From Chloroflexota bacterium (GTDB lineage: Bacteria; Chloroflexota; Limnocylindria; Limnocylindrales; CSP1-4): DNA of 34,155 bases. The notes under the pieces are model-generated. The model did no database searches. It had not been told where the DNA came from and worked only from the letters and a program-made list of their open reading frames with translations. A program made the translations under genes and the position numbers. The DNA lies in the NCBI GenBank assembly GCA_013695255.1, contig JACDAV010000258.1, positions 1-34,155 on the forward strand, written 5' to 3'. This document shows, in pieces, positions 1,712-33,111 of this stretch (its first letter is position 1; every line of letters begins with the position of its first letter).

Positions 1712-2941
1712 ATGCGGGTCACCGGGGTGCGGTCCCTGCTCGTCACGGCGCCCTGGACGGGAGACCCGTTCTGGGTTCCGAGCGAGCGCTTCGAGCGGAC
1801 GGCCGCGCTCATCGTCGTCGAGACCGACGAGGGGATCAGCGGCGTCGGGGAAACGATCATGGGCTACTTCTGCGCCGAGGTCGTCAGCCCGCTGATCGAC
1901 TACTACGGCGGCCTGATCAGGGAGCTGCGCCTCGACCCCCGCCAGCCCGAGGCCGCCTTCCGCGAGCTCCACCAGCGCTCGCTCTGGTGGGCCCGCGTGG
2001 GGCTCGGGTTGTCCGTGCTCTCGGGTCTGGAGATGGCCCTCTGGGACATCGCCGGCAAGGCGGCCGGCCGGCCGGTCCACGAGCTGCTCGGCGGCCCCGC
2101 CCACGACCGGCTGCCCCTGTACGCCTCCGGCGGCACGGGGGCGTGGCCGGTTGAGCGAGCCGTCGAGCAGGCGCGCCGCTACACCTCGCTCGGCTTTCGC
2201 GGGCTCAAGATCGGAACCGGCTTCGACGGTCGGCCAGGCGGCTACACCACGGCGCCCGGCGCGCCACCATACGGGACCTGGTACGCGGGCAGCACCGCCG
2301 GACGCGTGGCCGACGAGCGCGCCAAGTTCGGCGCGCTGCGCGAGGCGCTGGGGCCGGACATCGAGCTGGCCACCGACTGCCACGCGGTGCAGGTCCGCGA
2401 GCCGTGGTCCCGCTCGACCGCGCTCGGGCTGGCCCGCGCGCTCGAGCCCTTCGACCTCCTGTTCATGGAGGAGCCACTCCGGTACGACGACCCGGAGGGC
2501 TATGCCGAGCTGCGTCGGGCGACCCGGGTGCCGATCGCCGGCGGCGAGTGCCTGACCGGCGTGGACGAGTTCCGACGCTTCCTCGACCTCGACGCCCTCG
2601 ACTACGTCCAGCCCGATGCGACCCACGTCGGCGGTGTCGGGCCGGCCCGCGATGTCGCCCGGATGGCCGAGAGCCGGCACGTCGGTCTCGTCGTCCACAC
2701 GGGGGCCGCCATCGGCCCCGGGTTCATGGCCAACCTCCACGTCGCCTTCGCCAGCCCGAACGCCCGGTTCGTCGAGTACGCGCTCGCTCCCGACAACGTG
2801 CGCTCCGAGCTGCTGACCGAGCCGGTCCGGCTCGCCGACGGGTTCATCGAGCGCCCTTCCGCACCCGGGCTGGGCATCACGCTGGACCCCGACTTCGCGG
2901 ATCGGTATCCCTACCGGGCCGGCGTGGTCGAGTACGCGTGA
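1712..2941 (+). CDS. Enolase-superfamily enzyme, mandelate racemase/muconate lactonizing family (probable acid-sugar dehydratase), paralog 1
   Basis: Internal ATG at 1712 of ORF 1334..2941 (MRVTGVRSLL...), 10 bp after the upstream stop. It has the capping-domain motif GVGET and ALWDIAGK. Barrel metal ligands appear intact (ATDCH, FMEEP, IAGGE), followed by YVQPD and VVHTG (Asp/His pair). Confidence 0.88.
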   Translation: MRVTGVRSLLVTAPWTGDPFWVPSERFERTAALIVVETDEGISGVGETIMGYFCAEVVSPLIDYYGGLIRELRLDPRQPEAAFRELHQRSLWWARVGLGLSVLSGLEMALWDIAGKAAGRPVHELLGGPAHDRLPLYASGGTGAWPVERAVEQARRYTSLGFRGLKIGTGFDGRPGGYTTAPGAPPYGTWYAGSTAGRVADERAKFGALREALGPDIELATDCHAVQVREPWSRSTALGLARALEPFDLLFMEEPLRYDDPEGYAELRRATRVPIAGGECLTGVDEFRRFLDLDALDYVQPDATHVGGVGPARDVARMAESRHVGLVVHTGAAIGPGFMANLHVAFASPNARFVEYALAPDNVRSELLTEPVRLADGFIERPSAPGLGITLDPDFADRYPYRAGVVEYA

Positions 2942-3963
2942 GCGGCGCGCCGGATCCCGCGGCCGGGGACGTGCGTATCGGCATCGCCTTCCCGTTCACG
3001 GAGGCCGAGATCGACGCGCTCCGGGCGCTGTCGCCGCGGCTTCGGCTGCGCGCGTCGAGGGAGACGGATCAGGCTGCGATCGACGAGATCGCCACCGAGG
3101 ACCTCGATGGGCTCATCGCGCAGGCTCTGCCGAGCGACCGGCAGCGCACGCCGAGCCTGCGCTGGCTGCAGGTGATGTCCGCCGGCATCGATTCGCTGTC
3201 CGGGCCGGCATGGCCGCGCGGAGTCACGCTGACCAACGCCCGTGGCGCCTACGCCGGCCGCATCGGCCAGTACACGATCGCGGCGATCCTCGGCATTGCC
3301 GAGCGCCACGACGCACGCCGGGAGCAGCAGTCCACGGGATCGTGGCCGGACGACCCGGAGCGTCTCGTGGGCCGCCCGCTGCGGGGCCAGACACTGGTCA
3401 TCGTCGGATATGGCGGGATCGGGCGCGAGATTGCGCGACTGGCCACCGCTCATGGCATGCGGGTGCTGGCCGTCAAGTCGGATCCGGCGACCCGGATCGA
3501 CGGCGGCTTCCGGATGCCCGGCACCGGCGACCCCGAGGGCAGCCTCCCGGAGCGGATCGTTGGCCTGGACGAGCTGGCTGCCGTCGCCCGGGAGGCCGAC
3601 TACCTGTCGATCACGCTGCCGATCACGGAGCGGAGCCGCGGCGCCGTCAGTCGCGACGTCCTGGCCGCGCTGCCGGCCCACGCCTGGATCGTGAACACCG
3701 GCCGCGGGCCGGTCGTGGACGAGCCGGCGCTCGATGCGGCGCTCGCCGCGGGGCAGCTGGGCGGCGCCGTGCTCGACGTCTTCGGGGAGGAGCCGCTCCC
3801 GGCCTCCAGCCCGCTGTGGCGGCGATCGAACGTCGTCATCACGCCTCACGTGTCCGGGGCGGGCGCCCACGAGGAGCTGCTCGCCCTGGCCAGGGAGAAC
3901 GTCCGCCGGTTCGTGGCCGGCGAGCCCCTGCTCAACCAGGTGGACGTGGAGCGGGGCTACTGA
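2938..3963 (+). CDS. D-isomer-specific 2-hydroxyacid dehydrogenase, NAD(P)-binding
   Basis: GTG at 2938 overlaps the upstream TGA (GTGA); an alternative GTG lies at 2971. Motifs are IVGYGGIGREIA (GxGxxG), NTGRG, DVFGEEP and ITPHVSG, the family Arg/Glu/His set. Confidence 0.85.
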   Translation: MSGAPDPAAGDVRIGIAFPFTEAEIDALRALSPRLRLRASRETDQAAIDEIATEDLDGLIAQALPSDRQRTPSLRWLQVMSAGIDSLSGPAWPRGVTLTNARGAYAGRIGQYTIAAILGIAERHDARREQQSTGSWPDDPERLVGRPLRGQTLVIVGYGGIGREIARLATAHGMRVLAVKSDPATRIDGGFRMPGTGDPEGSLPERIVGLDELAAVAREADYLSITLPITERSRGAVSRDVLAALPAHAWIVNTGRGPVVDEPALDAALAAGQLGGAVLDVFGEEPLPASSPLWRRSNVVITPHVSGAGAHEELLALARENVRRFVAGEPLLNQVDVERGY

Positions 3964-3964
3964 C

Positions 3965-5137
3965 GTGAGATCGGCGACCGATCAGGGCCGGGTCGTGGAG
4001 CGTGTCGAATGCTTCGCGGTCAGCCACACGCTCGACCCCCGGACCGGGCCGTCGATCGCCCTGTCCGGCACCCACGCCTACGTCCTGGTCAAGATCACCG
4101 ACGCCGATGGCCGCTCGGGCTGGGGTGAGACCTACCTCGTGCCGGGCATCCCCTCGATCATCGAGACGGTGGCTCCGGCGATCCTCGGGCGCTCCGCGAC
4201 GGGAACGCGCGGGCTCGGCGAGGACGTTCGCCGGGCGGCCGAGCACGCCTACGCGGCGTCGGCCCTGACGATCGCCCTGGAGGACCTCCGGGCGCGCCAG
4301 CTCGGGGTGTCCGTGGCCGCCTCGTTCGGTGGTCCGGTTCGCGAGCGGGTCCGCCTCTACGCGGCGTTCGGCGGATACGTGGAGGGCATCGACCCGGCGG
4401 ACAGCTGGCCGCGGGACGTGGAGCGCGCCCTCGAGGCCGGCTTCACGGCCATGAAGTTCCGCGTCGGTCGTTACCCGGTGGCTCACGAGGCGGCGCTGCT
4501 CGAGCGGATCCGCGCCGACCTCCCGGCCGGCGTCGCGCTGATGGCCGACGGCAATGCCGGGTACACGCTGCCGCGGGCGATCGAGATGGGCCGGATCCTC
4601 GATTCGCTCGCCTTCGTGTGGTTCGAGGAGCCGATGCACCAGCGCGAGGGGTATGCCGGCTACGAGCACCTGGCCGCGGCGCTCGACATCGCCCTCGCCG
4701 GCGGCGAGATCCTCCAGACGCGCAGCGCCGCCATCGAGCTGCTGGGGCGCCGGGCGGTCGACATCGTCCAGCCGGAGCCGGTCATCTGCGGTGGGGTCGC
4801 CGAGGCGCTCTGGATCGCGGACCTCGCGGCCGTGCATTCCATCGCGGCCATGCCCCACACCTCCAACAACGCCCTGGGGATCGCGGCGGGGCTCCAGGTC
4901 CTGGCCTGTCTGCCGGACCCGACGCGCTCGCCGGCCTCGGACGAGCTGTTCCTCGAGTACGGCGTGGACGACAATCCCCACCGGACCGGGCTCCTCGCGG
5001 CAGCCCTTCGGTTCGCCGGCGGCTGGGCGACCGTCCCGGAGGGGCCGGGCCTCGGGGTGGAGGTCGACGAGGCCTACCTGCGGCATCACGCGCTCGAGAC
5101 GCGCGTCATCGACGCGGCCGGCGCTCGGGCCGTTTGA
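3965..5137 (+). CDS. Enolase-superfamily enzyme, mandelate racemase-like, paralog 2
   Basis: GTG at 3965, 1 bp after the upstream stop. Motifs are SGWGET, MKFRVG, LMADGNAGY, WFEEP, LAGGE, DIVQPE and MPHTS. The metal ligands look intact. Its subfamily differs from paralogs 1 and 4. Confidence 0.88.
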   Translation: MRSATDQGRVVERVECFAVSHTLDPRTGPSIALSGTHAYVLVKITDADGRSGWGETYLVPGIPSIIETVAPAILGRSATGTRGLGEDVRRAAEHAYAASALTIALEDLRARQLGVSVAASFGGPVRERVRLYAAFGGYVEGIDPADSWPRDVERALEAGFTAMKFRVGRYPVAHEAALLERIRADLPAGVALMADGNAGYTLPRAIEMGRILDSLAFVWFEEPMHQREGYAGYEHLAAALDIALAGGEILQTRSAAIELLGRRAVDIVQPEPVICGGVAEALWIADLAAVHSIAAMPHTSNNALGIAAGLQVLACLPDPTRSPASDELFLEYGVDDNPHRTGLLAAALRFAGGWATVPEGPGLGVEVDEAYLRHHALETRVIDAAGARAV

Positions 5138-7846: not shown

Positions 7847-8974
7847 CTAGGCCGACGGCGTCCGGCGGGCCGACTGCGTGTTGTCGTCGATCCAGTCCCA
7901 GTCGAGATCGACACCCAGGCCCGCGCCGGCGGGCAGGTGCTTGTAGCCCTCGGCATCGATCGCCAGCGGCTGGCCCTTGAGACCGCGGGTGTAGATCGGG
8001 TGGAACGTCTCCGCCCAGCGACCGTTGGTCATCGACAGCGAGACATGCAGATTGGCGATGTCGAGCAGGGGTTGGGCGACGCCGTGGACCTCGAGCTCGA
8101 AGCCGAGGAGGTCGGCCATCCCGACGGCCTTGCGCAGCCCGGTGATGCCCTCCTTCATGTGGACGTCGCCCCGGGCGATGTCGAAGGCGCCCAGCCGCAT
8201 CCCCTCGGCCAGCTCATGGACCCGTGAGGTCTCACCGGCCAGGATCGGCACGTCCAGCTGCTCGGTGAGCCGCTGGAGCTGGAACAGGTTGCGGTCCGGG
8301 ATGGGCTCCTCGAACCAGGTGTACCCGAGCTCGCCGAGAACCTTCCCGGCGGCCAGGGCCTGGGTGTAGCTGTACATCCCGGCCGCGTCCTGCATGAGCG
8401 GGAAGTCGTCGCCAACTGCCTCACGGGCCGCGCGGAAGCGCGGGATGTCGCGATCGAGGCCGTCCCAGAACTGGACCTTGAAGCCGTGGTAGCCCTGCGC
8501 CTGGCGCTCTTTCGCCTCCTCGTGGACGTCCTCGGGCGACGGCTCGATGGTGCGGGCGGTCGCATAGGCGCCGACCTTCGTGCGGGCGAGACCGAGCATC
8601 GTTGCGATCGGCAGGTTGGCGACCTTGCCCCGGATGTCCCAGATCGCGACGTCGATCGAACCCGCGACCCCGTCCGAAAGGTTGTAGGCGTGACGATTGA
8701 GCCGCCGCAGCTTGTGCCACAGGAGCTCGCTCTGGAGCGGGTCCTCGCCGATGAGCTGCGGGGCATACAGGTCGTGGAGGACGTGGATCATCGCGGCCCC
8801 GTCGCGCAGGTTCGCGTTCTGCATCGTGTAGCCCACGACGCCATCGTCCGTGTGAATGGTGTCGAACGAGTACTCGTACCACGAGGTCGAGATGCCCTCC
8901 GGCAGGATGCCCTCACCCCAGGCTTCGGCGACGTCGTAGCCGATGACGCGTGATTCGATCGCGGTGATCTTCAT
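7847..8974 (-). CDS. Enolase-superfamily enzyme, mandelate racemase-like, paralog 3
   Basis: Start MKITAIESR at 8974 forms an ATGA overlap with the upstream gene's stop. Motifs are AIWDIRGK, GFKVQFW, LMQDAAGMY, WFEEP, LAGE and LEVHG. Confidence 0.88.
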   Translation of the reverse strand: MKITAIESRVIGYDVAEAWGEGILPEGISTSWYEYSFDTIHTDDGVVGYTMQNANLRDGAAMIHVLHDLYAPQLIGEDPLQSELLWHKLRRLNRHAYNLSDGVAGSIDVAIWDIRGKVANLPIATMLGLARTKVGAYATARTIEPSPEDVHEEAKERQAQGYHGFKVQFWDGLDRDIPRFRAAREAVGDDFPLMQDAAGMYSYTQALAAGKVLGELGYTWFEEPIPDRNLFQLQRLTEQLDVPILAGETSRVHELAEGMRLGAFDIARGDVHMKEGITGLRKAVGMADLLGFELEVHGVAQPLLDIANLHVSLSMTNGRWAETFHPIYTRGLKGQPLAIDAEGYKHLPAGAGLGVDLDWDWIDDNTQSARRTPSA

Positions 8975-10026
8975 GGCAGCCTCTGCGCCCTGGGGGCCGC
9001 TCCCTCGACGAGGACCCGGCAACCGCTGGCCGCGGACCGCTGGACGGCCTCCAGGAACGCCATGTAGCCGAGGCCGGTCGCGAAGTCGGTCAGCGTGACC
9101 GAGCGTTCGCCGCGGATGGCGGCCACGAAGTCGATCTCGGCGGTCCAGTCCGCGCGGTCCTCGTCGCGGATGGCCACCGGTTCGGGGGTCCCGCCGCGAC
9201 CGGGCAGGCGGTCGATCCGGCGGGCCGCAAGGTCCACGACCAGGCTGGCGTCCGTGCCGTGGATGGCCACCCGATCGGCGGTGTGGGCGTTGGTGCGCGC
9301 CGACATCTCGATCACCGCAGTCACGTCGTCCGGGTACTCGGCGAGCGCCAGCACGTGATCGGGAACGTCTGCCTCGATCGGCCCGTCCGGACCGGGCCGC
9401 AGCGCGGCATCGAGTCGTGTGAGCGCGGACACCGCTTCCGGCTGGCCGAGCCAGCGCGCCATCGCCTCGGCCAGGATGCCGAGGGACATCACGTTCTCGC
9501 CACTCGTGGCCCGCCGCCAGCGCCAGAAGTCGGCGGGATCTGCCGGCCCGCTGGCGTCCCAGGTGACCTGGACGTGACGCACCCGCCCGATCGCGCCGGC
9601 GTGCACGAGGCGGGCGATCGTGGCATCCGCCCAGAGGGAGAACGAGGCCGGGACGACCATGGCCACGCGATCGGGGTGCGCCCGCGCGGCACGCACCATC
9701 GCCCGCGCCTCCTCGGCCGTGGCCGCCATGCGAGCCTCGGTGAGAACGTGCTTGCCGGCGTCGAGGGCGGCGATCGACACCGGCGCATGCAGGACGGGCC
9801 AGGCACCCACCAGCACGGCGTCGACGCCGGGATCGCCGACCAGGCCCCGCCAGTGCGGGAAGGCCCGCTCCAGCCCGAGCTCGTCGGCAGCCCGGCGCGA
9901 GGATTCCGGTGAGCGGTTGGCGACCCCGACGAGCTCGACCCCCTCGATCGCCCGGAAGCGCGGCACGTGCTCCGCGCGCACGATCCGCCCGGCCCCCACG
10001 ATGCCGATCCTGATCGGCTCTGTCAT
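8971..10026 (-). CDS. Gfo/Idh/MocA-family oxidoreductase, paralog 2 (atypical: EKP motif reads TEARM)
   Basis: Start MTEPIRIGIVGAGRIV at 10026, preceded on the coding strand by GAGGAGGG. The Rossmann motif is present. The position of the usual EKP Lys reads HVLTEARMA. Confidence 0.85.
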   Translation of the reverse strand: MTEPIRIGIVGAGRIVRAEHVPRFRAIEGVELVGVANRSPESSRRAADELGLERAFPHWRGLVGDPGVDAVLVGAWPVLHAPVSIAALDAGKHVLTEARMAATAEEARAMVRAARAHPDRVAMVVPASFSLWADATIARLVHAGAIGRVRHVQVTWDASGPADPADFWRWRRATSGENVMSLGILAEAMARWLGQPEAVSALTRLDAALRPGPDGPIEADVPDHVLALAEYPDDVTAVIEMSARTNAHTADRVAIHGTDASLVVDLAARRIDRLPGRGGTPEPVAIRDEDRADWTAEIDFVAAIRGERSVTLTDFATGLGYMAFLEAVQRSAASGCRVLVEGAAPRAQRLP

Positions 10027-10033
10027 GGCTGAC

Positions 10034-10873
10034 TCACCCTCCTCGATTGCTGGCCGCATCGTCCCAGCCGAGGCGGCGGGACAGGTCGTCGGCGGCGGCG
10101 CGGACGATGGCGCCGGCGTTCGCCTCCTTGTCCTCGCTGGTGCGATTGTCCGGCCAGGTCGCGATCAGGTCGCCGATCACGCGGCCGCGCGCGTCGCGGA
10201 TCGGCGCGGCGACTCCCACGGCTCCCTCGAACCGTTCCCCGTGGCTGACCACGTAGCCGCGTCGCCTCGCGGCCCGGAGCTCGCTCCGCAGGCGCGCCTT
10301 GGACCGCGGCGAACGGCCGGGGACCGGATCGGGGAGCCGGTCCAGGATGGCGGCCTGCTCGGCGGGGGGGAGGAAGGCGAGGATGCCCTTGCCGGATGAG
10401 CCCAGGTGCAGGTCGCTCCATTCGCGCAGCGACTCCCACAGGTAACGGATGGGGTGGCTGGTCTCCACGGCATCGACGGCGGAGAACTTGCGGCGGACCG
10501 GATCGTACAGCGCCAGGACGACCGTTTCGCCGATCGCCGCGGACGCGTGCTCGAGGATCGGCCGGCCCACGCGCCGGACATCGAGGTGCTCCGCCACGAG
10601 CAGGCCGATCCGGGCGAGGTCCGCACCAACCCGGAAGCGACCCGGATCGTCGGCCGGCGCGAGCAGGCCCAGGGCGGCCATGTCGTGGAGGATTCGGTGC
10701 GCGGCGCTGCGCGGGATGCCGGTCGATCGCGTCAGCTCGCGGACGCCCCATTCGCCCTCCTCGGCGAACGCCTCGAGGACCCGCACCCAGCGCGCCATCG
10801 GCCGCCTGGGCGGGCCTGCCATCGCGGGCGCGGTGGCTGCGCTGCTGGCGATTGACCCGGCTGGGCTGCGCAT
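10034..10873 (-). CDS. IclR-family transcriptional regulator
   Basis: The winged HTH reads VRVLEAFAEEGEWGVRELTRSTGIPRSAAHRILHDM. The C-terminal effector domain reads GAVGVAAPIRDARGRVIGDLIATWP. I chose the start at ATG 10873 because a TATCGT -10-like box lies 9 nt upstream (near-leaderless). ATGs at 10822 or 10798 are possible. Confidence 0.85.
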   Translation of the reverse strand: MRSPAGSIASSAATAPAMAGPPRRPMARWVRVLEAFAEEGEWGVRELTRSTGIPRSAAHRILHDMAALGLLAPADDPGRFRVGADLARIGLLVAEHLDVRRVGRPILEHASAAIGETVVLALYDPVRRKFSAVDAVETSHPIRYLWESLREWSDLHLGSSGKGILAFLPPAEQAAILDRLPDPVPGRSPRSKARLRSELRAARRRGYVVSHGERFEGAVGVAAPIRDARGRVIGDLIATWPDNRTSEDKEANAGAIVRAAADDLSRRLGWDDAASNRGG

Positions 10874-10895: not shown

Positions 10896-10932
10896 ATCGG
10901 GACTAGCGTCCCGATTACCCGGACGGTAATCG
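10896..10932. promoter_or_regulatory. Two overlapping inverted repeats in the IclR/E1 divergent spacer: ATCGGGAC-TAGC-GTCCCGAT (10896-10915) and CGATTACC-CGGAC-GGTAATCG (10912-10932)
   Basis: Both 8-bp arm pairs are perfect complements, read directly. They share the CGAT at 10912-10915. The first is centred on a TAGCGT -10-like hexamer (10904-10909), with GTGACG 18 nt upstream. Confidence 0.5.
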
Positions 10933-10968: not shown

Positions 10969-13386
10969 GTGGCCGTCGCCGACGCTCAGCGCGCACCGCC
11001 GCCCGCCCGCCGTCCGGACGCCTCCACGCTGGACGCCGTGGCGCGACGGATCCTGTGGCTCGCGGTGCGGATGATCCACGAGGCCAACCACGTCCGGCCG
11101 AGCCCGGACGGCCTCAAGGTGGGCGGTCACCAGGCCTCCAGCGCATCGGTCGTCTCGATCCTGACGGCGCTCTATTTCCGTTGGCTCCGGGCCGGCGATC
11201 TCGTCGCCATCAAGCCGCACGCGTCGCCGGCGTACCACGCCGTCCAGTACCTGCTCGGCAACCTCGACGCCTCGATGCTGCCGCGCCTGCGCGAGTTCGG
11301 TGGGCTGCAGTCGTACCCGTCACGTACCAAGGACCCGGATCCGGTCGACTTCTCGACTGGGTCGATGGGCCTCGGTGCCGTGGCCCCGATGTTCGCGGCC
11401 CTCGCCGACCGCTACCTCCGGCTGCACTTCCACGACACGATCGCCGGCCAGCCGGAACGACGATTCGTCGCCCTCGTCGGCGACGGCGAGCTCGACGAGG
11501 GGAACGTCTGGGAGGCGATCCTCGAGGAGGGGCTGGGCGACCTCGGGAACGTGACGATGGTGGTGGACCTCAACCGCCAGAGCCTCGACCGGGTCGTGCC
11601 GGGCATCCGGATCCGGCGCGTGGAGGGCATGTTCGCGGCTGCCGGCTGGCATGCGCTCGAGGCGAAGTATGGCCGCCGACTGCAGGCACGGTTCGCGATG
11701 CCGGGCGGCGACGCGCTGCGCGAGCGGATCGACGACATGGAGAACGAGGAGTACCAGATTCTCATCCGCCGGCCGGGCGCCGAGGCAAGGACCAGGCTGC
11801 TCGAGGGCGCTGTGGCGGCTCGGCGCGATGACCTCGCCGGCAACGTCGAGGATGTGCCCGACGACGCGCTGCCCGGGCTTCTCGCCGACCTCGGCGGGCA
11901 CGACCAGGCGGAGCTGGAGCGGGTGCTCCGAGCCTCCGACGCGGAGCTCGCCCGGCCAACCGTGATCTTCGCCTACACGATCAAGGGCTGGCGGCTGCCA
12001 TTCGCCGGGGACAGCCTGAACCACTCCGCGCTCCTCGGCCTCGAGCAGGTCGAGGCGCTGGGCCTCGCCCTCGACGCGGACTCGGAGGATCCGTGGGCCG
12101 GCTTCCCATTGGCCTCGCCCGAGGGGCGGCTCGCCGCCCGCCGTCGACGCGATCTCGGCTACGGCACGGCCCGCCCGACGACCTCGCCGGCGACCGCGCC
12201 GGTCATCGCCGTGCCGGACATCCGGATCGCCGCGGCGAGCAGCACGCAGCAGGCGTTCGGCGACACGCTGGCGGCCCTGGCGCGCGACCCGGAGCTCGGC
12301 CGGCGAATCGTGACCGCCGCTCCCGACGTGGCCGTCTCCACCAACCTCGGCGGCTGGATCAACCGGGCCGGGGTCTTCTCGGCGCGTCGCAGCCCGGATC
12401 GCGACGATGTCAAGCGCCCGCTGGTGTGGGAACCCGGGCCGGCCGGGCGTCACATCGAGCTCGGGATCAGCGAGATGAACCTGTTTCTCTGGCTCAGCCA
12501 GTTCGGTCTGGCCGGAGAGCTGTTCGGCGAGCGGCTGGCGCCCATCGGGTCCGTCTACGACCCGTTCATCGCCCGCGGTCTCGATGCCCTGATCTACGCT
12601 CTCTACGTCCAATCGCGGTTCGTCCTCGTCGGCACCCCCTCCGGCGTGACGCTCGCCCCCGAGGGTGGCGCCCATCAGTCCACCGTCACGCCATCCCTCG
12701 GGATCGAGCTGCCGGGGCTGCGGGGCTACGAGCCGACCTTCGGCCGTGAGGTGGTGTGGTCCCTGCTCGAGGGCATCCGCGGCTGTCTCGCGCCGGAGGA
12801 CGGATTCGCCACCTACCTGCGACTTGCCACGCGCCCGATCGACCAGTCCCTCGCGGCGCCGGTGGAGGCGCGGCTCGGACTCGAAGGCTGGCGCGCCGCG
12901 GTGCTCGCGGGCGGCTACCGGCTCCTCGAGGCCGCGGACGCGCTCGAGCCGCTTCCGCCGGGGAGTCCGGTCGTCCAGGTCGTCGCGGCGGGATCCATCG
13001 TGCCCGAGGCAGTCGAGGCCGTCCGGAGGCTCCACCACGAGGAGATCGCGGCCAACCTGATCGTGGTCACCTCCGCGGAACGGCTGGCAGGGGAGCAGCA
13101 TGCCGGTCGGCTCGACGCGGTCCGCCATGGCGGCCGGAACGAGATCGGCCATCTCGCGACGATCATTCCTCCGGGCGAGCGACGAGCGCCCCTGGTGACC
13201 GTTGCCGACGCCGCGTCGCATGCGCTGTCATTCGTCGGCGGCGCGTTCGGAGCCCCGGTCGTGCCGCTAGGGGTCGACACCTTCGGTCAATCGGGCACGA
13301 TCCCGGACCTGTACCGCTACGCGGGCATCGATGCCGATCACATCGTCGAAGCAGCAATCCTGGCACTCGAGCTGGAGGCCCATTGA
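10969..13386 (+). CDS. Homodimeric-type (AceE-like) thiamine-diphosphate-dependent 2-oxoacid dehydrogenase E1 component, 805 aa, stand-alone
   Basis: GTG start with GGAGGAGG 8 nt upstream. Motifs are VGGHQASSAS and the ThDP fold VALVGDGELDEGNVWEA...VVDLNRQSLD. The C-terminus reads LGVDTFGQSGTIPDLYRYAGID. No E2 or E3 gene is in the window. Confidence 0.85.
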   Translation: MAVADAQRAPPPARRPDASTLDAVARRILWLAVRMIHEANHVRPSPDGLKVGGHQASSASVVSILTALYFRWLRAGDLVAIKPHASPAYHAVQYLLGNLDASMLPRLREFGGLQSYPSRTKDPDPVDFSTGSMGLGAVAPMFAALADRYLRLHFHDTIAGQPERRFVALVGDGELDEGNVWEAILEEGLGDLGNVTMVVDLNRQSLDRVVPGIRIRRVEGMFAAAGWHALEAKYGRRLQARFAMPGGDALRERIDDMENEEYQILIRRPGAEARTRLLEGAVAARRDDLAGNVEDVPDDALPGLLADLGGHDQAELERVLRASDAELARPTVIFAYTIKGWRLPFAGDSLNHSALLGLEQVEALGLALDADSEDPWAGFPLASPEGRLAARRRRDLGYGTARPTTSPATAPVIAVPDIRIAAASSTQQAFGDTLAALARDPELGRRIVTAAPDVAVSTNLGGWINRAGVFSARRSPDRDDVKRPLVWEPGPAGRHIELGISEMNLFLWLSQFGLAGELFGERLAPIGSVYDPFIARGLDALIYALYVQSRFVLVGTPSGVTLAPEGGAHQSTVTPSLGIELPGLRGYEPTFGREVVWSLLEGIRGCLAPEDGFATYLRLATRPIDQSLAAPVEARLGLEGWRAAVLAGGYRLLEAADALEPLPPGSPVVQVVAAGSIVPEAVEAVRRLHHEEIAANLIVVTSAERLAGEQHAGRLDAVRHGGRNEIGHLATIIPPGERRAPLVTVADAASHALSFVGGAFGAPVVPLGVDTFGQSGTIPDLYRYAGIDADHIVEAAILALELEAH

Positions 13387-13811
13387 TGTCCGACGCCGAC
13401 GCGGCTCCTGCCCTGTCCACGACACAGAGGGCGTTCCTGCGCGAGCGGCCCCACGCGATCGTGGCGACGATCATGCCCGACGGCCGGCCGCAGCTGACCC
13501 CGGCGTGGTACCTCTGGGACGGCGAGCGGTTCTGGGTCAGCACGCTCGACTGGACGGTCAAGGTCAAGAACGCCAGGCGCGACCCCCGCGTCACCCTGTG
13601 CATCGACGGGCCGGATCGGGAGAGCAATTACGTCCAGGTCTTCGGGACGGCCGAGGTCCAGGGCGGTGACGTGCGGGAGCGAACCCTCGATCTCATCCGG
13701 AAGTATGAGCCGGTCGAGGCGGACGCCATCGCCCACTGGGACAGGATCAAGGCCGACCGCGTGCTCCTGGTCGTGGCTCCGGACCACTTCCAGTGGCGGT
13801 ACGACGACTGA
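13386..13811 (+). CDS. PPOX-class (pyridoxamine 5'-phosphate oxidase-like split-barrel) probable F420/FMN-dependent protein, paralog 1
   Basis: The ATG at 13386 shares one base with the E1 stop (TGATG). The sequence reads AIVATIMPDGRPQLTPAWYLWDGERFWVSTLDWTVKVKNARRDPRVTLCID, typical of the Rv1155-like F420 split-barrel class. Confidence 0.85.
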   Translation: MSDADAAPALSTTQRAFLRERPHAIVATIMPDGRPQLTPAWYLWDGERFWVSTLDWTVKVKNARRDPRVTLCIDGPDRESNYVQVFGTAEVQGGDVRERTLDLIRKYEPVEADAIAHWDRIKADRVLLVVAPDHFQWRYDD

Positions 13812-14955
13812 CCTGCGGCGCGACCGCCGGCTGCGCCCGCGCGGAGGTGACCGCCGGCCCGAGCCCCACCTCGGCCAGCGCCGCCCGCGTGGCGGCGATG
13901 GTCGTGTCAATGTCGGCGCGCTCGATCCCGTAGTGGGGGATCGCCCGGATCCGGCCCTCCGGGTACTCGATCATCCGCACACCACGCGCTTCGAGCCGGG
14001 CGAGAAACGCCGCGCGGGTCCGGACCGCGCGCTCGCGACCCGCGCGATCGTCCGGCCAGCGGCCCTGGTCGCCGATCGCGAACAGCACGAAGTTGGTGCG
14101 CACCCGGGTCGGGTCGAGGCCGGTGACGCCGGGCATGGATGCCAGGGCGTCGGCGAGGTAGCGGGCGTTGGCGTGATCGTCGGCAAGGCGGTCGATCATG
14201 CCCAGCGGGCCGTCCCGGAGTGCCACCAGCCCGGCCGCGGCGATGATGCCGGCCTGGCGCATCCCGCCGCCGACCATCTTGCGGGCTCGGCGCGCCCGGG
14301 CGATGAACGCCGTGTCGCCGACGACGACCGACCCGACCGGGCAGGCGAGGCTCTTGGACAGGCAGAATGTCGCCGAGGCCCGGGCCGGCACGAGGTCCCG
14401 GGCCGGAACGCCGAGCGCGACCGCCGCGTTGAACAGGCGCGCGCCATCGATGAACAGCGGGATCCGCACGTCGCGCGCGAGCTCCGCGAGCGACTGCATG
14501 TACGCCGGCGCGAGCGGCTGGCCCATCGACAGGGCGTGCGTGTTCTCGATCGTGATCAGCGCGCTGATCGGCTGGTGCACGTCGCTCGGGTCGCGGACCG
14601 CGCCGCGGACGGCCACGAGATCGATCGTGCCATCGTCCGCCGCAGGGATCGCCCGCGCGCTCGCACCGACGACCACCGCATGCCCGGCGCCCTCGCTGCT
14701 GAACGTGTGGATCTCCGCCGGGCCGATGATCTCGCCACCGCGCGGGACATGGGCCAGCAGCCCCACGAGGTTGCCCATCGTGCCGCTGGCGACCAGGAGT
14801 CCGGCTTCCGCGCCGAGCAGCTCCGCCGACCGCTCCTCGAGCGCCCGAACGGTCGGATCCTCGCCCCAGACGTCGTCACCCACCTCTGCCTCGGCCATGG
14901 CGTGGCGCATGGCGGGGGAGGGCAGCGTCACCGTGTCCGAGCGAAGATCGATCAT
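13747..14955 (-). CDS. ltaE: Low-specificity L-threonine aldolase (PLP-dependent, fold type I)
   Basis: Start MIDLRSDTVTLP at 14955. Motifs are DDVWGEDPTV, ASGTMGN and FCLSKSLACPVGS (PLP lysine). A 40-aa Pro/Arg-rich C-terminal tail overlaps the 3' end of the convergent PPOX gene. Confidence 0.85.
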   Translation of the reverse strand: MIDLRSDTVTLPSPAMRHAMAEAEVGDDVWGEDPTVRALEERSAELLGAEAGLLVASGTMGNLVGLLAHVPRGGEIIGPAEIHTFSSEGAGHAVVVGASARAIPAADDGTIDLVAVRGAVRDPSDVHQPISALITIENTHALSMGQPLAPAYMQSLAELARDVRIPLFIDGARLFNAAVALGVPARDLVPARASATFCLSKSLACPVGSVVVGDTAFIARARRARKMVGGGMRQAGIIAAAGLVALRDGPLGMIDRLADDHANARYLADALASMPGVTGLDPTRVRTNFVLFAIGDQGRWPDDRAGRERAVRTRAAFLARLEARGVRMIEYPEGRIRAIPHYGIERADIDTTIAATRAALAEVGLGPAVTSARAQPAVAPQVSRRTATGSGPEPRPGARGRP

Positions 14956-15025
14956 CCCGGGCGGGGCAACCGGGCGGATGCGTCCATCGGCGAGTAGGGT
15001 AGCACTGCAACTCGGGGTTCCAGCT

Positions 15026-15044
15026 CCAGTGTGACTTACACTGG
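15026..15044. promoter_or_regulatory. Inverted repeat CCAGTGT-GACTT-ACACTGG containing a TACACT -10-like box (15036-15041) 8 nt before the MFS GTG start
   Basis: Perfect 7-bp arms read directly. The position of the -10 implies a leaderless or near-leaderless MFS mRNA. Confidence 0.35.
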
Positions 15045-15049
15045 CCCGC

Positions 15050-16381
15050 GTGGCCCAACCGAGCGGCGACGTCATCCTCGGAGCTGGATCCCGCCTCGAC
15101 CGGGTGGGCTGGAGCGCGCTCTCGTACGGGCCGTTCCGGTTCTTCCTGGCCGCAATGCTTGCCTCGACGAGCGCCAACTTCGTGTACTACGCGGCGCTCG
15201 GCTGGTACGTCCTCGAGGTCACCGGGTCCGCGGCCGCGGTCGGCTTCGCGTTCACGGCGTCCGGGCTGCCGATCCTGCTCCTGACGGCGCATGCCGGCGT
15301 CCTGACCGATCGGCTCGGGGCACGGGTCATGTTGCTCGGATCGCTCGTCGGCATGGCCCTCGCGACCGCCGCCCAGGCCGTCCTCGCCATGGGTGGCGCC
15401 CCGCCCTACGCGCTCGTGGTGGCGCTGGCCCTGGGCCTCGGGATCGCCATGACCGTCGGGGCGCCGGCGTCGGTGGCCATCGTGACCGAGCTCGTCGCAC
15501 CGCCGGCCGTCTCGAGCGCGACCGCGCTCAACTTCCTGCACATGAACGTGTCGCGGATCATCGGCGGGTTGGTCGGCGGGCTCATGCTCGCCACGACGAC
15601 GCCGGCCGTCGCGTTCGGTGCGGCCGCCGCCCTGTTCGTGCTGGCGATCGTGATCATGGCGCGGATGCGGACGCCGGGCGCGCGGCCCACCGCCGAACGG
15701 CCGCGGGCGGCACTCGTGGGCCCACTCCTGGAGGCGTTCCGGTACGCCATCCGCCACCCGACCCTGGGCGTGCTCATCGTCCTGTCCATCGCCCCCGGCG
15801 CGATCGGGCTCAGCTACATCTTCATGCTTCCCGTCGCGGCCGAGGAACTGGGGATCGGGGCCGCCGGGCTCGGCATCCTGATGGCCGCCAGCGGCGTCGG
15901 CGGGTTGATCGCCGGGCTGTCGCTCGAATCCATCCAGCGCCGGGTGGGCCACGGTCGAGCGCTGTTCGGCGGGCTCGTCGGTGCGGCGATCGGGCTGACG
16001 TCGTTCGGCCTCGCGCCCAGCGTGCCGCTCGCCATCGGTGCGTTGCTCATCGTCGGGGCGAGCTTCCTGACCTTCGCGGCGGCCACCGTGACGCTGACCC
16101 AGGCCCTCGCGCCGGCCCGGCTGCGTGGCCGCCTGGTGAGCCTGTTCGCGACGCTGTACTGGGGAATGATGCCGGTCGGCGCACTCCTCGTCGGGCTCGT
16201 CGCAGAGGCGACGACCGGGCGGACCGCGATTGCCCTGTGCGGTGCCGGGCTGGCCATTGCCGGCGCGACCGCGTTCTTCGCCCGGCCGCAGATCGCGACC
16301 CTGAGCGTGGGTCGCGACGGGCTGACCCTGAGTGGCGACTTGCGCGGCTCGGGCGCGGAGCCGCCGTCGCTCAGCGCCTGA
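15050..16381 (+). CDS. MFS transporter (12-TM, EntS/MFS_3-like)
   Basis: 443 aa. Hydrophobic segments alternate throughout. The loop motif GVLTDRLGARV follows TM2. This is the only transporter in the window. Confidence 0.85.
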   Translation: MAQPSGDVILGAGSRLDRVGWSALSYGPFRFFLAAMLASTSANFVYYAALGWYVLEVTGSAAAVGFAFTASGLPILLLTAHAGVLTDRLGARVMLLGSLVGMALATAAQAVLAMGGAPPYALVVALALGLGIAMTVGAPASVAIVTELVAPPAVSSATALNFLHMNVSRIIGGLVGGLMLATTTPAVAFGAAAALFVLAIVIMARMRTPGARPTAERPRAALVGPLLEAFRYAIRHPTLGVLIVLSIAPGAIGLSYIFMLPVAAEELGIGAAGLGILMAASGVGGLIAGLSLESIQRRVGHGRALFGGLVGAAIGLTSFGLAPSVPLAIGALLIVGASFLTFAAATVTLTQALAPARLRGRLVSLFATLYWGMMPVGALLVGLVAEATTGRTAIALCGAGLAIAGATAFFARPQIATLSVGRDGLTLSGDLRGSGAEPPSLSA

Positions 16382-18514: not shown

Positions 18515-19498
18515 TCACGTTGTGGGCTCCGGCTGTCGGTCGAAGAAGTCGATCCCTGCCGTCCGGCAGTCCTCGATGAACTCGTACAGCCCCTCGTCCG
18601 TGTTGTGGAGGCCGGGAATGCCCGCCGTGATCCGGTCGAAGCCAAGCTCGCGCCAGGCGGCCAGCTCCTCCGCCCGGCTGCCGACGGCCGCAACCTTCTC
18701 GGGATCCTGGTATGCGAGCTCATGGGGCTCGGCGAAACGCTGGCCGCCGGTCACCCGCAGGTTCTTGTAGCGCATGATCTGGTTCGTGCCGCAGTTGAGC
18801 TCGATCGTCGCCGGATCCCGGCCGATCTCCGCGCAGCGCTCGTGGAACACCTCGAGGAGCTCCGGGACCTGGTCCGGGAAGACATTGAGGTTCAGCTCGT
18901 CGCAGTAGCGGGCGGCGAGGCGCAGCGTGTAGTTCCTGCCGTGGCCGCCGATGAGCAGCTTCACGCCGGGTGCGCGGGCAGCGCGCGGGCTGTTGGCGAG
19001 ATCCTCCACCCGGGCGTACGTTCCCTCGAACGAGAACCGCGGCTCGTCCCGGCGCGTGGCGCGCCAGATGATCTCGAAGTGCTCGGACAGCCATTCCATC
19101 CGGTCGCGCAGTCCTGGATAGGGATGGCCGTAGGCGAGCGCCTCGTTCTCCTTGAACCCGGCGCCGAGGCCGAGCGTGAGGCGTCCACCGCTGATGGCGT
19201 CCAGGGTGGAAGCGGCCTTCGCGGTCAGCGCCGGGTTGTGGAACGTGGAGTTCACGACGATGAGCCCGAGCCCGACGCGCGGGACGAGCGGCGCCAGCCC
19301 GGAGGAGAGCGCCCAGCAGTCGAAGGCGATCGATTCGCCCGGCCACTTGGAGAGGACGTGCTCGCCGGTCCAGATCGATCCGAACCCGAGGCGTTCCGCC
19401 GTCCGCGCGAGCTCCACGATCCGTGCCCAGGCGCGCCCGGGCTCCCAACCCTCGAACTCATTGAAGTAGCCCTGCGGGAGGACCAGCCCGACCTGCAT
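18515..19498 (-). CDS. LLM-class (luciferase-like) F420-dependent oxidoreductase, Rv1855c-like, paralog 1
   Basis: Start MQVGLVLPQGYFNEF at 19498, 8 nt after the upstream paralog's stop. Motifs are GFGSIWTGEHV and AISGGRLTLGLGAG, in a TIM-barrel LLM pattern. Confidence 0.88.
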   Translation of the reverse strand: MQVGLVLPQGYFNEFEGWEPGRAWARIVELARTAERLGFGSIWTGEHVLSKWPGESIAFDCWALSSGLAPLVPRVGLGLIVVNSTFHNPALTAKAASTLDAISGGRLTLGLGAGFKENEALAYGHPYPGLRDRMEWLSEHFEIIWRATRRDEPRFSFEGTYARVEDLANSPRAARAPGVKLLIGGHGRNYTLRLAARYCDELNLNVFPDQVPELLEVFHERCAEIGRDPATIELNCGTNQIMRYKNLRVTGGQRFAEPHELAYQDPEKVAAVGSRAEELAAWRELGFDRITAGIPGLHNTDEGLYEFIEDCRTAGIDFFDRQPEPTT

Positions 19499-19506
19499 CG
19501 GAGGCG

Positions 19507-20490
19507 TCAGCCGATCGCCGCGGCCGGCGCGAGCTCGATGCCCGCCGTCCGCAGGTCGTCCAGCAGTTCGTAGAGGCCCTCGTCCGTGTTGGCCAGGCCG
19601 GGCGCCCCGCAGATGACCCGATCGATCCCCAGTTCGACCCACCGGGCCAGCTCCTCCGCGCGGGGCGGGAGCGCATCGAAGTCGTACGGCATGATCGCCG
19701 GCAGGTCCTCCTTGCGCATGAGCCGCTGACGGCCGATCGCCTTGAGGCCGGGGTATGGCCAGGCGGGGTTGGTCCCCGTGGCGATGCTGAGGGTGGAGGG
19801 GTCCCGGCCGATCTCGGCGCAACGATCGGCCAGAATGCTCATCGCCTCGGCCATGCTCTCGGAGGGCAGGTCGACGTTGATCTCGTCGCAGTACTTCGCT
19901 GCCAGGCGGAAGGTCACATTGCGACCATGGCCGCCGATCGCAATCCGGACGTGGTCGCCGCCACCCGTCCGTGGCGCGTTGACCACGTTCTCCACGCGCG
20001 CGCGCGATCCCTCGAACGTGAACGGGGGCTCGTCGCGGCGGGTCATCCGGCTGATGATCTCGAGATGCTCACCAAGGATGGCCAGTCGCTCCTTCATGTC
20101 CGGGAACGGCACGCCGAAGGCCCGCGCCTCGTTGTCCTTGAAGCCGCAGCCGAGACCAAGGATCAGCCGACCGCCGCTGATCGTGTCCAGGGTGGAGGCC
20201 ATCTTTGCGGTCATGGCGGGATTGCGGAACGTCGAGTTGATGACGCCGAACCCGATGTCGACCCGCGGCACGGCCGCCGCAACGGCGGTGTGGAGGGTGA
20301 CGCAGTCGAAGATCGGCGCTTCCGGGTCCCACTTCGCCAGCACGTGCTCGCCGGTCCACAGGGACTCGAAGCCGAGTCGCTCGCCCAGCCGCGCGACCGC
20401 GAGGATGCGTTCCCAGGCTGCGTTGGGCGCCCAGCCCTCGAATTCGTTGAAGTAGCCCTGGGGCAGGAGCAGGCCGATCTTGATCGCGAT
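19507..20490 (-). CDS. LLM-class F420-dependent oxidoreductase, paralog 2; the conserved N-terminus has no ATG/GTG/TTG, so the probable start is ATC (20490 or 20484)
   Basis: The ORF track starts at an internal GTG (20343). The same frame continues upstream as IAIKIGLLLPQGYFNEFEGWAPNAAWERILAVARLGERLGFESLWTGEHV, collinear with paralog 1. GGAGGG lies 8 nt before the first ATC. Confidence 0.7.
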   Translation of the reverse strand: MAIKIGLLLPQGYFNEFEGWAPNAAWERILAVARLGERLGFESLWTGEHVLAKWDPEAPIFDCVTLHTAVAAAVPRVDIGFGVINSTFRNPAMTAKMASTLDTISGGRLILGLGCGFKDNEARAFGVPFPDMKERLAILGEHLEIISRMTRRDEPPFTFEGSRARVENVVNAPRTGGGDHVRIAIGGHGRNVTFRLAAKYCDEINVDLPSESMAEAMSILADRCAEIGRDPSTLSIATGTNPAWPYPGLKAIGRQRLMRKEDLPAIMPYDFDALPPRAEELARWVELGIDRVICGAPGLANTDEGLYELLDDLRTAGIELAPAAAIG

Positions 20491-31852: not shown

Positions 31853-32488
31853 GTGCCGGCGATCATCCATCCGGGTGCGGTCATCCACTGCTGGGACCAC
31901 CTCGTGATCACGCTGCGCGACGGGCCGGCGGGGAGCGAGACCGGGTTCGTGAGCCTCTACGCCGTCACCTACTCGCCCTCACTCGGCGCCGGCCACGTGG
32001 CGATCGTCGAGGTGCCCGGCGCCGCTGGCGGCGGTCTGATGGCCACGCTCACGGACGACCTCGGGCTGGGCGCGCGTCAGCAGGAGCGGCTGATCGCGAT
32101 GGGGGATGGTCGACTGGCGCTCCGCCGGCCGCCGGTCGAGGCGCGGTTCGAGCGCATCCCGTACGGCCCCGATGGCTTCGGCTTCCGGCTGTGGACAGAG
32201 GAGCACGCCATCGAGGCGCACTGGGACCGAACGGAGCCGCCGTTCTGGGTCGATGGTCAGAACGGCGGGTTCCACGACCTCGAGGACATCTGGGCGGTCA
32301 TGGTGGGGGCGCGCGCGGCACGCGTGCTGGTGGATGGGGTCGAGGTCCCCGGCGCGCCGTTCGAGGACGAGGCGTGGACACCCAGGCTGGGCCGGACCCT
32401 CAGCTCCGCCCACGGCGCCTTCGCGGAGGTGCGCGTCCAGCCGGTCAGCGATCGTGCCACTGGAAGCGTTCCGGATGGACGTCGATGA
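31853..32488 (+). CDS. Hypothetical protein (211 aa), no family recognised; co-transcribed with the Mo large subunit
   Basis: GTG start 6 bp after the upstream stop. Third-position GC stays high throughout, as in confirmed genes. There is a single Cys and no Fe-S or FAD-binding motifs. The last 44 bp overlap the convergent PPOX gene. Confidence 0.6.
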   Translation: MPAIIHPGAVIHCWDHLVITLRDGPAGSETGFVSLYAVTYSPSLGAGHVAIVEVPGAAGGGLMATLTDDLGLGARQQERLIAMGDGRLALRRPPVEARFERIPYGPDGFGFRLWTEEHAIEAHWDRTEPPFWVDGQNGGFHDLEDIWAVMVGARAARVLVDGVEVPGAPFEDEAWTPRLGRTLSSAHGAFAEVRVQPVSDRATGSVPDGRR

Positions 32489-32855
32489 TCACCCGCGGCC
32501 CGTCCGCGACGAGCGACTCCCAGTGCGGCAGGACCTGCGCGGCGGGCATGTACTTGCGACACAGCTCGAGCGTCGGTTCGCGTGCGTCGTCGCCCTCCCT
32601 GAGCGACGCGATGCCGGTCACCTGGACGTAGTCGCCGCTGTCGACATCATCGATGCACAGCACGATGCGCCGGTCGCGGCGCAGGTTGCGGGTCTTCACC
32701 GCCCGCTCGGCGGTGCTGATCCAGAACGATTCGCCGGTCCACAGGAACCAGTTCGGCGTCAGCTGCGGGAGACCGTCCGGCTGGATGGTCGCCACGATCG
32801 CGTTCGGGGTGGTGGCCAGGAGCTCTGCCTGCCGGCGGAGCGAGGGGATCGTCAT
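32445..32855 (-). CDS. PPOX-class probable F420/FMN-dependent split-barrel protein, paralog 2
   Basis: Start MTIPSLRRQAELL at 32855. The sequence AIVATIQPDGLPQLTPNWFLWTGESFWISTAERAVKTRNLRRDRRIVLCID is collinear with 13386-13811. The rest of the 425-aa ORF upstream is antisense to the lipoprotein gene. Confidence 0.85.
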   Translation of the reverse strand: MTIPSLRRQAELLATTPNAIVATIQPDGLPQLTPNWFLWTGESFWISTAERAVKTRNLRRDRRIVLCIDDVDSGDYVQVTGIASLREGDDAREPTLELCRKYMPAAQVLPHWESLVADGPRVIIDVHPERFQWHDR

Positions 32856-33111
32856 CTCGTGAGGATACGGTCGCGCGAGGCAGCGCCGGGACGCGCAATC
32901 GGTCACCACCAGGCTCGCCAGCGGCACGGCGGCTTCCCCGGCATCCATGGTTCCCTGTATTTCCGCGGGCAACGGCGCCCCGCTATCGTCCCGTCCTGAG
33001 AGAGCACAGCTGGGTCGCGGGACGTCCTCGACGTCTCGGGCTCGTTCGCAGCAAAGCCATGAGACCTGGAGCGCGGCTCGGCCCGCGATCCGGGTTCGGA
33101 AGGAGCGAATC

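Follow-up and report, generated by a model that had tools for sequence, protein, structure and literature searches.

A short AceE-like E1 translationally coupled to an F420-class split-barrel protein in one clade of Chloroflexota

The 34,155-nt stretch of Chloroflexota DNA analyzed here, which we refer to as the window, carries a gene for a thiamine diphosphate (ThDP)-dependent E1 enzyme whose stop codon overlaps the start codon of a gene for a PPOX-class protein. We found that this E1 belongs to an old and mostly vertically inherited family of short E1s that is separate from canonical AceE and that, in one clade of this family, the E1 gene is strictly followed by an overlapping gene for an FDOR-B type PPOX protein. 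Each of the two proteins falls within a known superfamily. The short E1 family as a distinct, uncharacterized paralogue and the conserved translational coupling of a short E1 to an FDOR-B protein both appear to be undescribed in the literature searched, in agreement with a preliminary description of this DNA that knew of no E1-PPOX pairing. Our preferred reading, to which we give a probability of roughly 45%, is that the gene encodes an accessory 2-oxoacid E1 that would be controlled by a divergent IclR-family regulator and would depend on a lipoyl E2, and that a co-translated F420H2-dependent reductase, the PPOX protein, was added to it later. The pattern suggests that PPOX joined the E1 without replacing its usual lipoyl partner.

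Results

The E1-PPOX pair is strictly conserved within one clade

The window is contig C105 of a 2.35-Mb metagenome-assembled genome (MAG) that is 80% complete, and it has a G+C content of 72%. Its nearest named relative is a MAG of Candidatus Limnocylindrales in the same genus. Open reading frame (ORF) analysis returned the same coordinates for E1 and PPOX (Table 1) and the same TGATG junction as had been described: the E1 TGA occupies positions 13384-13386 and the PPOX ATG positions 13386-13388, leaving a 1-nt overlap. The sequence GGAGGAGG sits 8 nt 5' of the E1 GTG, a start codon with a strong ribosome-binding site that is kept in relatives, and GGAGG lies 7 nt 5' of the PPOX ATG.

The pairing was seen in one group of freshwater and soil Chloroflexota. 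PPOX lies directly behind E1 in every relative examined with an E1 identity of at least 74%, which amounts to about 12 distinct sequences. The two genes overlap by 1 or 4 nt at L103, L104/L105, L106/L133, L107 (= G004/L023), L108, L131, L132, and L134, and PPOX stands immediately behind the E1 3' end in the fragments L135, L137, and L138. The reciprocal test gave the same picture: eight metagenome loci carry a PPOX that is at least 73% identical, and E1 lies upstream in all seven that have a long enough flank. Of 60 related genomes, only G004 has a PPOX orthologue (71% identity), which adjoins E1 there, and no PPOX orthologue away from E1 was found in the related genomes and metagenome loci searched. 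The overlap has survived in every clade member despite a divergence that reaches 26% in E1 and 32% in PPOX. A single E1-PPOX adjacency would be weak evidence alone, given that the MAG holds eight PPOX-class paralogues, two of them in the window. Retention of the overlap across about 12 distinct relatives goes beyond a single chance adjacency.

The pair also stays together when its surroundings change. At L108, it lies in another operon, with the order Aminotran_3-E1-PPOX-MR_MLE-GFO-FAA_hydrolase, where the overlap is kept and no IclR gene is adjacent. A block of MR_MLE, 2-hydroxyacid dehydrogenase, and MR_MLE genes (window 1712-5137) recurs upstream of E1 at L108 (1-3806), where it runs on through GNAT and class-III aminotransferase genes directly into E1-PPOX. 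Given that this block recurs, L108 represents the same island rearranged around an intact pair.

The preliminary description had raised both the possibility that short AceE homologues recurrently sit next to PPOX genes and the possibility that the adjacency is conserved in no relative. The recurrence is strict within this one clade but does not extend across the family, given that PPOX is absent at 79 of 80 species-genome loci and the exception belongs to the same genus. It is likewise absent beside sister E1s at 64-69% identity (L109, G030, and G021), and no PNPOx family recurs among the immediate neighbors of the short E1 family. A link found at only 1 of 80 genome loci is ruled out as a family-wide trait. 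The PPOX-linked E1s form one clade in a tree of 82 short E1s (SH-aLRT 99), and the link thus arose once. Among 219 E1 positions that are conserved in at least 90% of the rest of the family, only four are altered in the PPOX clade (Y103M, P349S, V534I, and V697L). None of these is catalytic, and P349S is shared with two of three sister sequences. No E1-PPOX gene fusion was found among the 150 best cluster representatives.

The E1 has a complete ThDP active site and a short N terminus

The E1 contains the Pfam domains Transketolase_N, PDH_E1_M, and Transketolase_C_1. The full ThDP motif reported for the 805-residue protein is present (GDGELDEG...DLNRQ). On the NCBIfam aceE model TIGR00759, the E1 scores 216.7 bits against a cut-off of 859.9 and matches only model positions 81-856, while true AceE genes of other genomes reach 1317-1420 bits. 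The E1 is about 30% identical to the canonical AceE-type E1s of related genomes. Residues 83-854 of Escherichia coli E1 (PDB 1l8a) align with the protein (E = 1.4e-38), and this alignment pairs E. coli H106, S109, H142, Y177, and D230 with H54, S57, H84, Y116, and D172; E235, N260, H407, and D521 with E177, N202, H352, and D453; and E571, Y599, R606, and H640 with E502, Y530, R536, and H569. Each of these 13 catalytic residues is invariant in 81 or 82 of 82 short E1 family sequences, and both active-site loop regions of the short E1 are invariant. The same alignment places Val at E. coli E522 and Lys at Q140; the corresponding V454 and K82 are invariant among the 15 short E1 family members of alignment A1.

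In E. coli, the N-terminal segment of E1 (residues 1-55) docks on E2's peripheral-subunit-binding domain, and reductive acylation of lipoamide requires His407 of E1. In the short E1 family, the GGH motif is preceded by a median of 51 residues versus 103 in E. coli, and the family therefore lacks roughly the segment that docks on E2. The termini had been called AceE-like, which is true of the C terminus, given that it aligns, but not of the N terminus, which is about 50 residues shorter than that of E. coli. Of the two readings offered, that of an orphan aceE with its E2 and E3 elsewhere came closer to the evidence, but an ordinary aceE is ruled out by the score (217 versus 860 bits) and by the short N terminus.

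Short E1s form a separate family of accessory paralogues

A word-indexed search returned more than 8000 homologues of E1 at E <= 1e-10. The best 120 of these are 63-99% identical and about 800 residues long, and homologues carry the JGI/NCBI names "pyruvate dehydrogenase E1 component" or "pyruvate dehydrogenase". An exhaustive search of cluster representatives gave 927 clusters at 50% identity (E <= 1e-30), and species-representative genomes hold at least 597 short E1 loci. Within the Chloroflexota, carriers include Chloroflexia, Anaerolineae, Dehalococcoidia, and Ktedonobacteria; further carriers are Actinomycetota (Acidimicrobiia, Micromonospora, Salinispora, and Gaiellales), Binatia, and Acidobacteriota. 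In a maximum-likelihood tree built from the 82 short E1s and canonical AceE sequences, the short E1s track phyla, and canonical AceE stands outside on a very long branch.

All five complete genomes with a short E1 that were checked also encode canonical AceE and/or three to five E1alpha genes. Within the genus of the window, a short E1 was found in 2 of 11 genomes; it was not detected in 8 of the 10 other genus genomes searched, and E2 is present in 9 of these 10. Given this coexistence with other E1s and the distribution in 2 of 11 genomes, the short E1 is an accessory paralogue and not the housekeeping pyruvate dehydrogenase (PDH) E1.

All-versus-all clustering of flanking ORFs found no neighbor common to the whole short E1 family. 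It recovered only synteny internal to Micromonospora, with gatB upstream and Metallophos downstream, and the immediate neighbors were otherwise heterogeneous. In the single-contig genome G030 (G030:C1:2530122-2532543; L005/L021), the short E1 is encoded in two overlapping frames with a break near residue 264, which represents either a frameshifted pseudogene or an assembly indel; the divergent IclR gene and the operator are intact. Some very long predicted proteins of 4600-5900 residues (P0182, P0190, P0222, and P0249) also contain a short-E1 domain (35-39% identity) and are probably concatenated or eukaryotic gene models. P0249 has in addition two RidA (L-PSP) domains and Methyltransf_28; the very long proteins have no polyketide synthase, nonribosomal peptide synthetase, or PPOX domains.

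E2, E3, and lipoyl machinery

As had been described, no E2 or E3 gene was found among the annotated ORFs of the window. An E2 catalytic domain was also not found in the assembled MAG, which is probably due to fragmentation. The prediction that these components lie elsewhere in the genome holds for contig C392, which carries lpd (513 bits versus a cut-off of 409) followed by E1alpha and then by E1beta, cut by the contig end. For E2, it holds as far as a fragment: contig C58 terminates in the N-terminal lipoyl domain of an E2. With E1alpha and E1beta adjoining lpd on C392, the short E1 is ruled out as the sole PDH E1 of the genome. A parallel drawn with actinobacteria does not apply to the host, which is a Limnocylindrales-type member of the Chloroflexota.

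In three other lineages, the short E1 adjoins E2 or lipoate-ligase genes. The Dehalococcoidia MAG locus L075 (5743-12700) has the same-strand order short E1-E1alpha-E1beta-E2-LplA/B, with the short E1 first, and two E1 types thus share one operon with one E2. In the Caldilineaceae loci L032 and L033, the gene after the short E1 encodes a complete E2 that has lipoyl, E3-binding, and catalytic domains.

The PPOX protein belongs to an F420-class family

PPOX scores 100.8 bits on TIGR03618, which describes the Rv1155 family of the F420-dependent PPOX class (cut-off 79.05), and 63 bits on PF01243 (PNPOx_N). Its closest PDB sequence is 3f7e (MSMEG_3380). The AlphaFold model is a split beta-barrel (pLDDT 75), and its top Foldseek matches are 4qvb (Rv1155 with F420), 1rfe, 3f7e, and 4zky, with a probability of 1.00 and a TM score of about 0.6. 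The proteins matched by fold include Rv1155, Rv2991, MSMEG_3380, and MSMEG_6526. Known FDOR-B enzymes use F420H2 to reduce biliverdin, dehydrotetracycline, and cyclic imines, and most of the physiological substrates of the group are still to be found (PMC8498797). The terms "pyruvate" and "2-oxoacid" were not found in the text of the same review (PMC8498797), and the literature searched yielded nothing relevant on a link between E1 and F420.

A cofD gene is present in the MAG (280 bits versus a cut-off of 257); it was the only F420 biosynthesis gene searched, in a MAG that is 80% complete. The second F420-class PPOX of the window (32445-32861, minus strand) scores 93.5 bits on TIGR03618, above the cut-off, and is 54% identical to the E1-linked protein. 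It adjoins a molybdenum hydroxylase gene (29534-31846), with no ThDP enzyme nearby. Two tandem LLM genes (18515-20343, minus strand) have their best match to TIGR03560, an F420-dependent LLM family, with scores of 182 and 161 bits that fall short of its cut-off of 231. The relatives L103, L104, and L106 likewise have LLM genes on the flanks of the island, and F420-linked redox chemistry may thus be a theme of the island.

A divergent IclR gene and a conserved candidate operator

The E1-PPOX pair was described as facing an IclR gene that heads an operon, which we confirmed: the IclR gene is followed on the minus strand by GFO_IDH_MocA and MR_MLE genes (span 7847..10059), and this order is also seen in relatives. 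Relatives with E1 identities as low as 64% also have IclR and E1 in divergent orientation. A candidate operator (10896..10932) lies between a TTGACC -35-like box and the E1 ribosome-binding site and consists of two overlapping perfect inverted repeats (Table 1). Its GGGAC-N4-GTCCC core, together with a downstream CGGAC, is present in nine of nine IclR-E1 intergenic regions (L103, L104, L106, L107, L109, L131, L133, L134, and L021), sisters without PPOX included. The N4 spacer varies among these regions, and a TTGAC box lies upstream. L108, where no IclR gene stands beside E1, lacks the candidate operator. From the conservation of this candidate operator, we infer that IclR probably controls the E1 promoter.

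The window as a whole is a hydroxy-acid and sugar-acid island. It encodes an FMN-dependent 2-hydroxyacid dehydrogenase, a D-2-hydroxyacid dehydrogenase, four enolase-superfamily dehydratases, two HpcH/HpaI aldolases, five GFO_IDH_MocA oxidoreductases, an FAA_hydrolase, an SDR, an MFS transporter, and L- and D-threonine-aldolase-like pyridoxal phosphate (PLP) enzymes. Pyruvate or other 2-oxoacids are products of many of these island enzymes. The threonine-aldolase-like gene that converges on PPOX is found in the relatives L103, L104, and L107 and scores 392.6 bits on NF041359, a GntG-family aldolase model (cut-off 230). Its 3' end shares 65 nt (13747-13811) with that of PPOX, with no such overlap in the relative L104, and its ORF extends about 47 residues beyond the end of its hidden Markov model match.

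Table 1. Features of the E1-PPOX locus in the window
Feature	Position	Strand	Details
E1, N-terminally short, AceE-like homodimeric-type ThDP E1	10969..13386	+	GTG start, 805 aa
PPOX, F420-class PPOX/FDOR-B split-barrel protein	13386..13811	+	ATG start, 141 aa
Candidate IclR operator, palindrome ATCGGGAC-N4-GTCCCGAT	10896-10915		perfect inverted repeat
Second inverted repeat, enclosing the CGGAC half-site	10912-10932		perfect, overlaps the first palindrome
IclR-family regulator, divergent from E1	10034..10795	-	PF09339 (HTH_IclR) 45.4 bits and PF01614 (IclR_C) 76.3 bits, both above cut-offs
GFO_IDH_MocA oxidoreductase, downstream of IclR	8971-10059	-	Pfam and NCBIfam matches
Enolase-superfamily (MR_MLE) acid-sugar dehydratase, downstream of IclR	7847-9022	-	Pfam and NCBIfam matches
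Threonine-aldolase-like PLP enzyme, convergent with the PPOX gene	13747..15177	-	Beta_elim_lyase 294 bits

Discussion

Working from sequence features, phyletic pattern, and gene order, we infer the following catalytic steps for an accessory, lipoyl-dependent E1. The products of the neighboring aldolase, dehydratase, and hydroxyacid-dehydrogenase genes would release a 2-oxoacid, probably pyruvate or a closely similar compound, and the E1 would decarboxylate it. The E1 would then acylate the lipoyl arm of an E2 whose gene lies elsewhere, and in this genome the partner set would be the lpd-E1alpha-E1beta-E2 components on C392 and C58. We propose that the E1 does not dock stably on E2, given that it lacks the N-terminal docking segment. 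The divergent IclR protein would repress E1 through the conserved GGGAC-N4-GTCCC candidate operator. The gene for an FDOR-B type F420 PPOX protein was inserted a single time directly behind E1 in one Limnocylindrales subclade and has stayed in an overlapping, translationally coupled register since then. PPOX may use F420H2 to reduce a pathway metabolite or a reactive by-product (an enone, a dicarbonyl, or a cyclic imine, for example) and would be co-expressed with the E1 without serving as its electron acceptor.

Several observations weigh against this reading. The E. coli-type E2-binding segment is missing across the whole short E1 family, and E2 is near the short E1 in only 3 of about 75 loci; given these two points, the dependence on E2 that we propose would be an indirect deduction. 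No characterized member of the family was found in the literature searched. Outside the PPOX clade, E1 neighbors include genes for an ACT protein, glycogen synthase, and NAD synthase. Given that sister E1s adjoin such genes, the short E1 family has no general tie to sugar-acid catabolism, and the link seen here may be local only. Finally, the E1-PPOX association is strict, reciprocal, and always overlapping, and it survives the operon rearrangement at L108. This strictness exceeds that of a casual co-regulated neighbor and leaves room for a physical or functional couple.

We considered that such a couple could oxidize 2-oxoacids with F420. The hydroxyalkyl-ThDP carbanion/enamine on E1 would be oxidized by F420 held or delivered by a PPOX dimer, yielding acyl-ThDP, which would then be hydrolyzed or thiolyzed, and F420H2, which would go to the island's candidate F420 enzymes (the two LLM genes and the second PPOX). 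In a variant of this scheme, PPOX would be an F420-linked E3 surrogate that re-oxidizes dihydrolipoamide. F420 carries hydride only, and carbanion addition to C5 of deazaflavins provides a chemical precedent. Overlap in every clade member, the presence of this E1 in front of all close PPOX relatives with a readable flank, the intact pair at L108, the E1 without an E2-docking N terminus, and a genome with cofD and several candidate F420 enzymes are all consistent with a couple. Even so, replacement of lipoamide by PPOX and F420, as the preliminary description had envisaged, has the conserved coupling as its only positive support, and several findings run counter to it. The link has a single origin, and the sister E1s and all remaining branches of the family do without PPOX. 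The gain of PPOX left the E1 active site and 215 of the 219 family-conserved positions unchanged. The equivalent of His407, the residue used in E. coli for reductive acylation of lipoamide, is retained, and no fusion of the two proteins turned up among the cluster representatives. Characterized FDOR-B enzymes consume F420H2, and the review of these enzymes describes no 2-oxoacid link (PMC8498797). We consider this couple, in either form, distinctly improbable.

It is also conceivable, if unlikely, that the short E1 works without any E2 as a stand-alone, non-oxidative ThDP decarboxylase or carboligase. The island would provide a 2-oxoacid or a 2-keto-3-deoxy sugar acid as its substrate, and PPOX would use F420H2 to reduce the product, an aldehyde, acyloin, or dicarbonyl. 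A precedent for such an enzyme is the Kgd of mycobacteria, which makes 2-hydroxy-3-oxoadipate. The missing docking segment and the lack of an adjacent E2 at nearly all family loci fit this possibility, as do the coexistence of other E1s in all five complete genomes checked and the position of the pair among enolase-superfamily dehydratases, HpcH aldolases, a 2-hydroxyacid dehydrogenase, and, at L108, an aminotransferase. On the other hand, invariance extends to the His407 equivalent and both active-site loop regions, the short E1 adjoins E2 or lipoate-ligase genes in three lineages, and the context outside the clade is not one of sugar acids. The pairing might instead be a neutral accident in which a PPOX paralogue landed behind E1 and has persisted by shared ancestry, with read-through transcription as its only consequence. 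The single origin of the link, the eight PPOX paralogues in the genome with two in the window, and the fairly close relationship of the clade members (E1 identity of at least 74%) are what an accident would predict. We regard it as improbable, given that the overlap was kept despite divergence of up to 26% in E1 and 32% in PPOX, that the reshuffling at L108 did not split the pair, and that no PPOX orthologue was found away from E1. An accessory lipoyl-dependent E1 with a later-added reductase is the reading that we tentatively prefer.

The coupling of E1 and PPOX in one clade provides a testable handle on the role of the short E1 family and on the physiological role of FDOR-B proteins. PDH counts in metabolic reconstructions may be wrong where the short E1 is included, given that it is a separate paralogue that lacks the E2-docking segment and occurs alongside other E1s. 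If the pair does reduce F420 from a 2-oxoacid, it would constitute a new electron entry into the F420 pool. As a direct couple or with PPOX as an E3 stand-in, it would be a new bacterial route to F420H2 directly from 2-oxoacid oxidation, one that supplies the island enzymes.

Among the known systems that come closest, the short E1 can be compared with E. coli AceE (1L8A, TIGR00759). The two share the single-chain homodimeric E1 architecture with Transketolase_N, PDH_E1_M, and transketolase C-terminal domains, the ThDP/Mg motif, and equivalents of H106, S109, H142, Y177, E235, H407, D521, E571, Y599, R606, and H640. Unlike AceE, the short E1 is about 50 residues shorter at the N terminus that docks on E2, is accompanied by other E1s in the genomes checked, and is rarely adjacent to E2. 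In pyruvate oxidase and pyruvate:ferredoxin oxidoreductase, a flavin or an iron-sulfur cluster oxidizes hydroxyethyl-ThDP. The oxidation of a ThDP intermediate by a non-lipoyl acceptor would be analogous only if E1 and PPOX formed an F420 couple, and in those enzymes the acceptor is in the same polypeptide and the ThDP folds are different, whereas the candidate acceptor protein is separate here. The hybrid PDH-ODH complex of Corynebacterium glutamicum, in which one E2/E3 serves several E1s (PMC7568260), offers a model for how an E1 encoded apart from E2 and E3 could, by analogy, use a shared lipoyl-E2 core. The short E1 differs in that the known docking segment is missing. PPOX itself resembles the mycobacterial FDOR-B proteins (Rv1155, MSMEG_3380/3F7E, and Rv2991) in scoring above the TIGR03618 cut-off, in its length of about 140 residues, and in a predicted split beta-barrel that best fits F420-bound Rv1155 and MSMEG_3380. 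It differs from them in being only 24-30% identical, in its Chloroflexota host, and in its translational coupling to a ThDP E1, a context that is not reported in the review of these proteins (PMC8498797).

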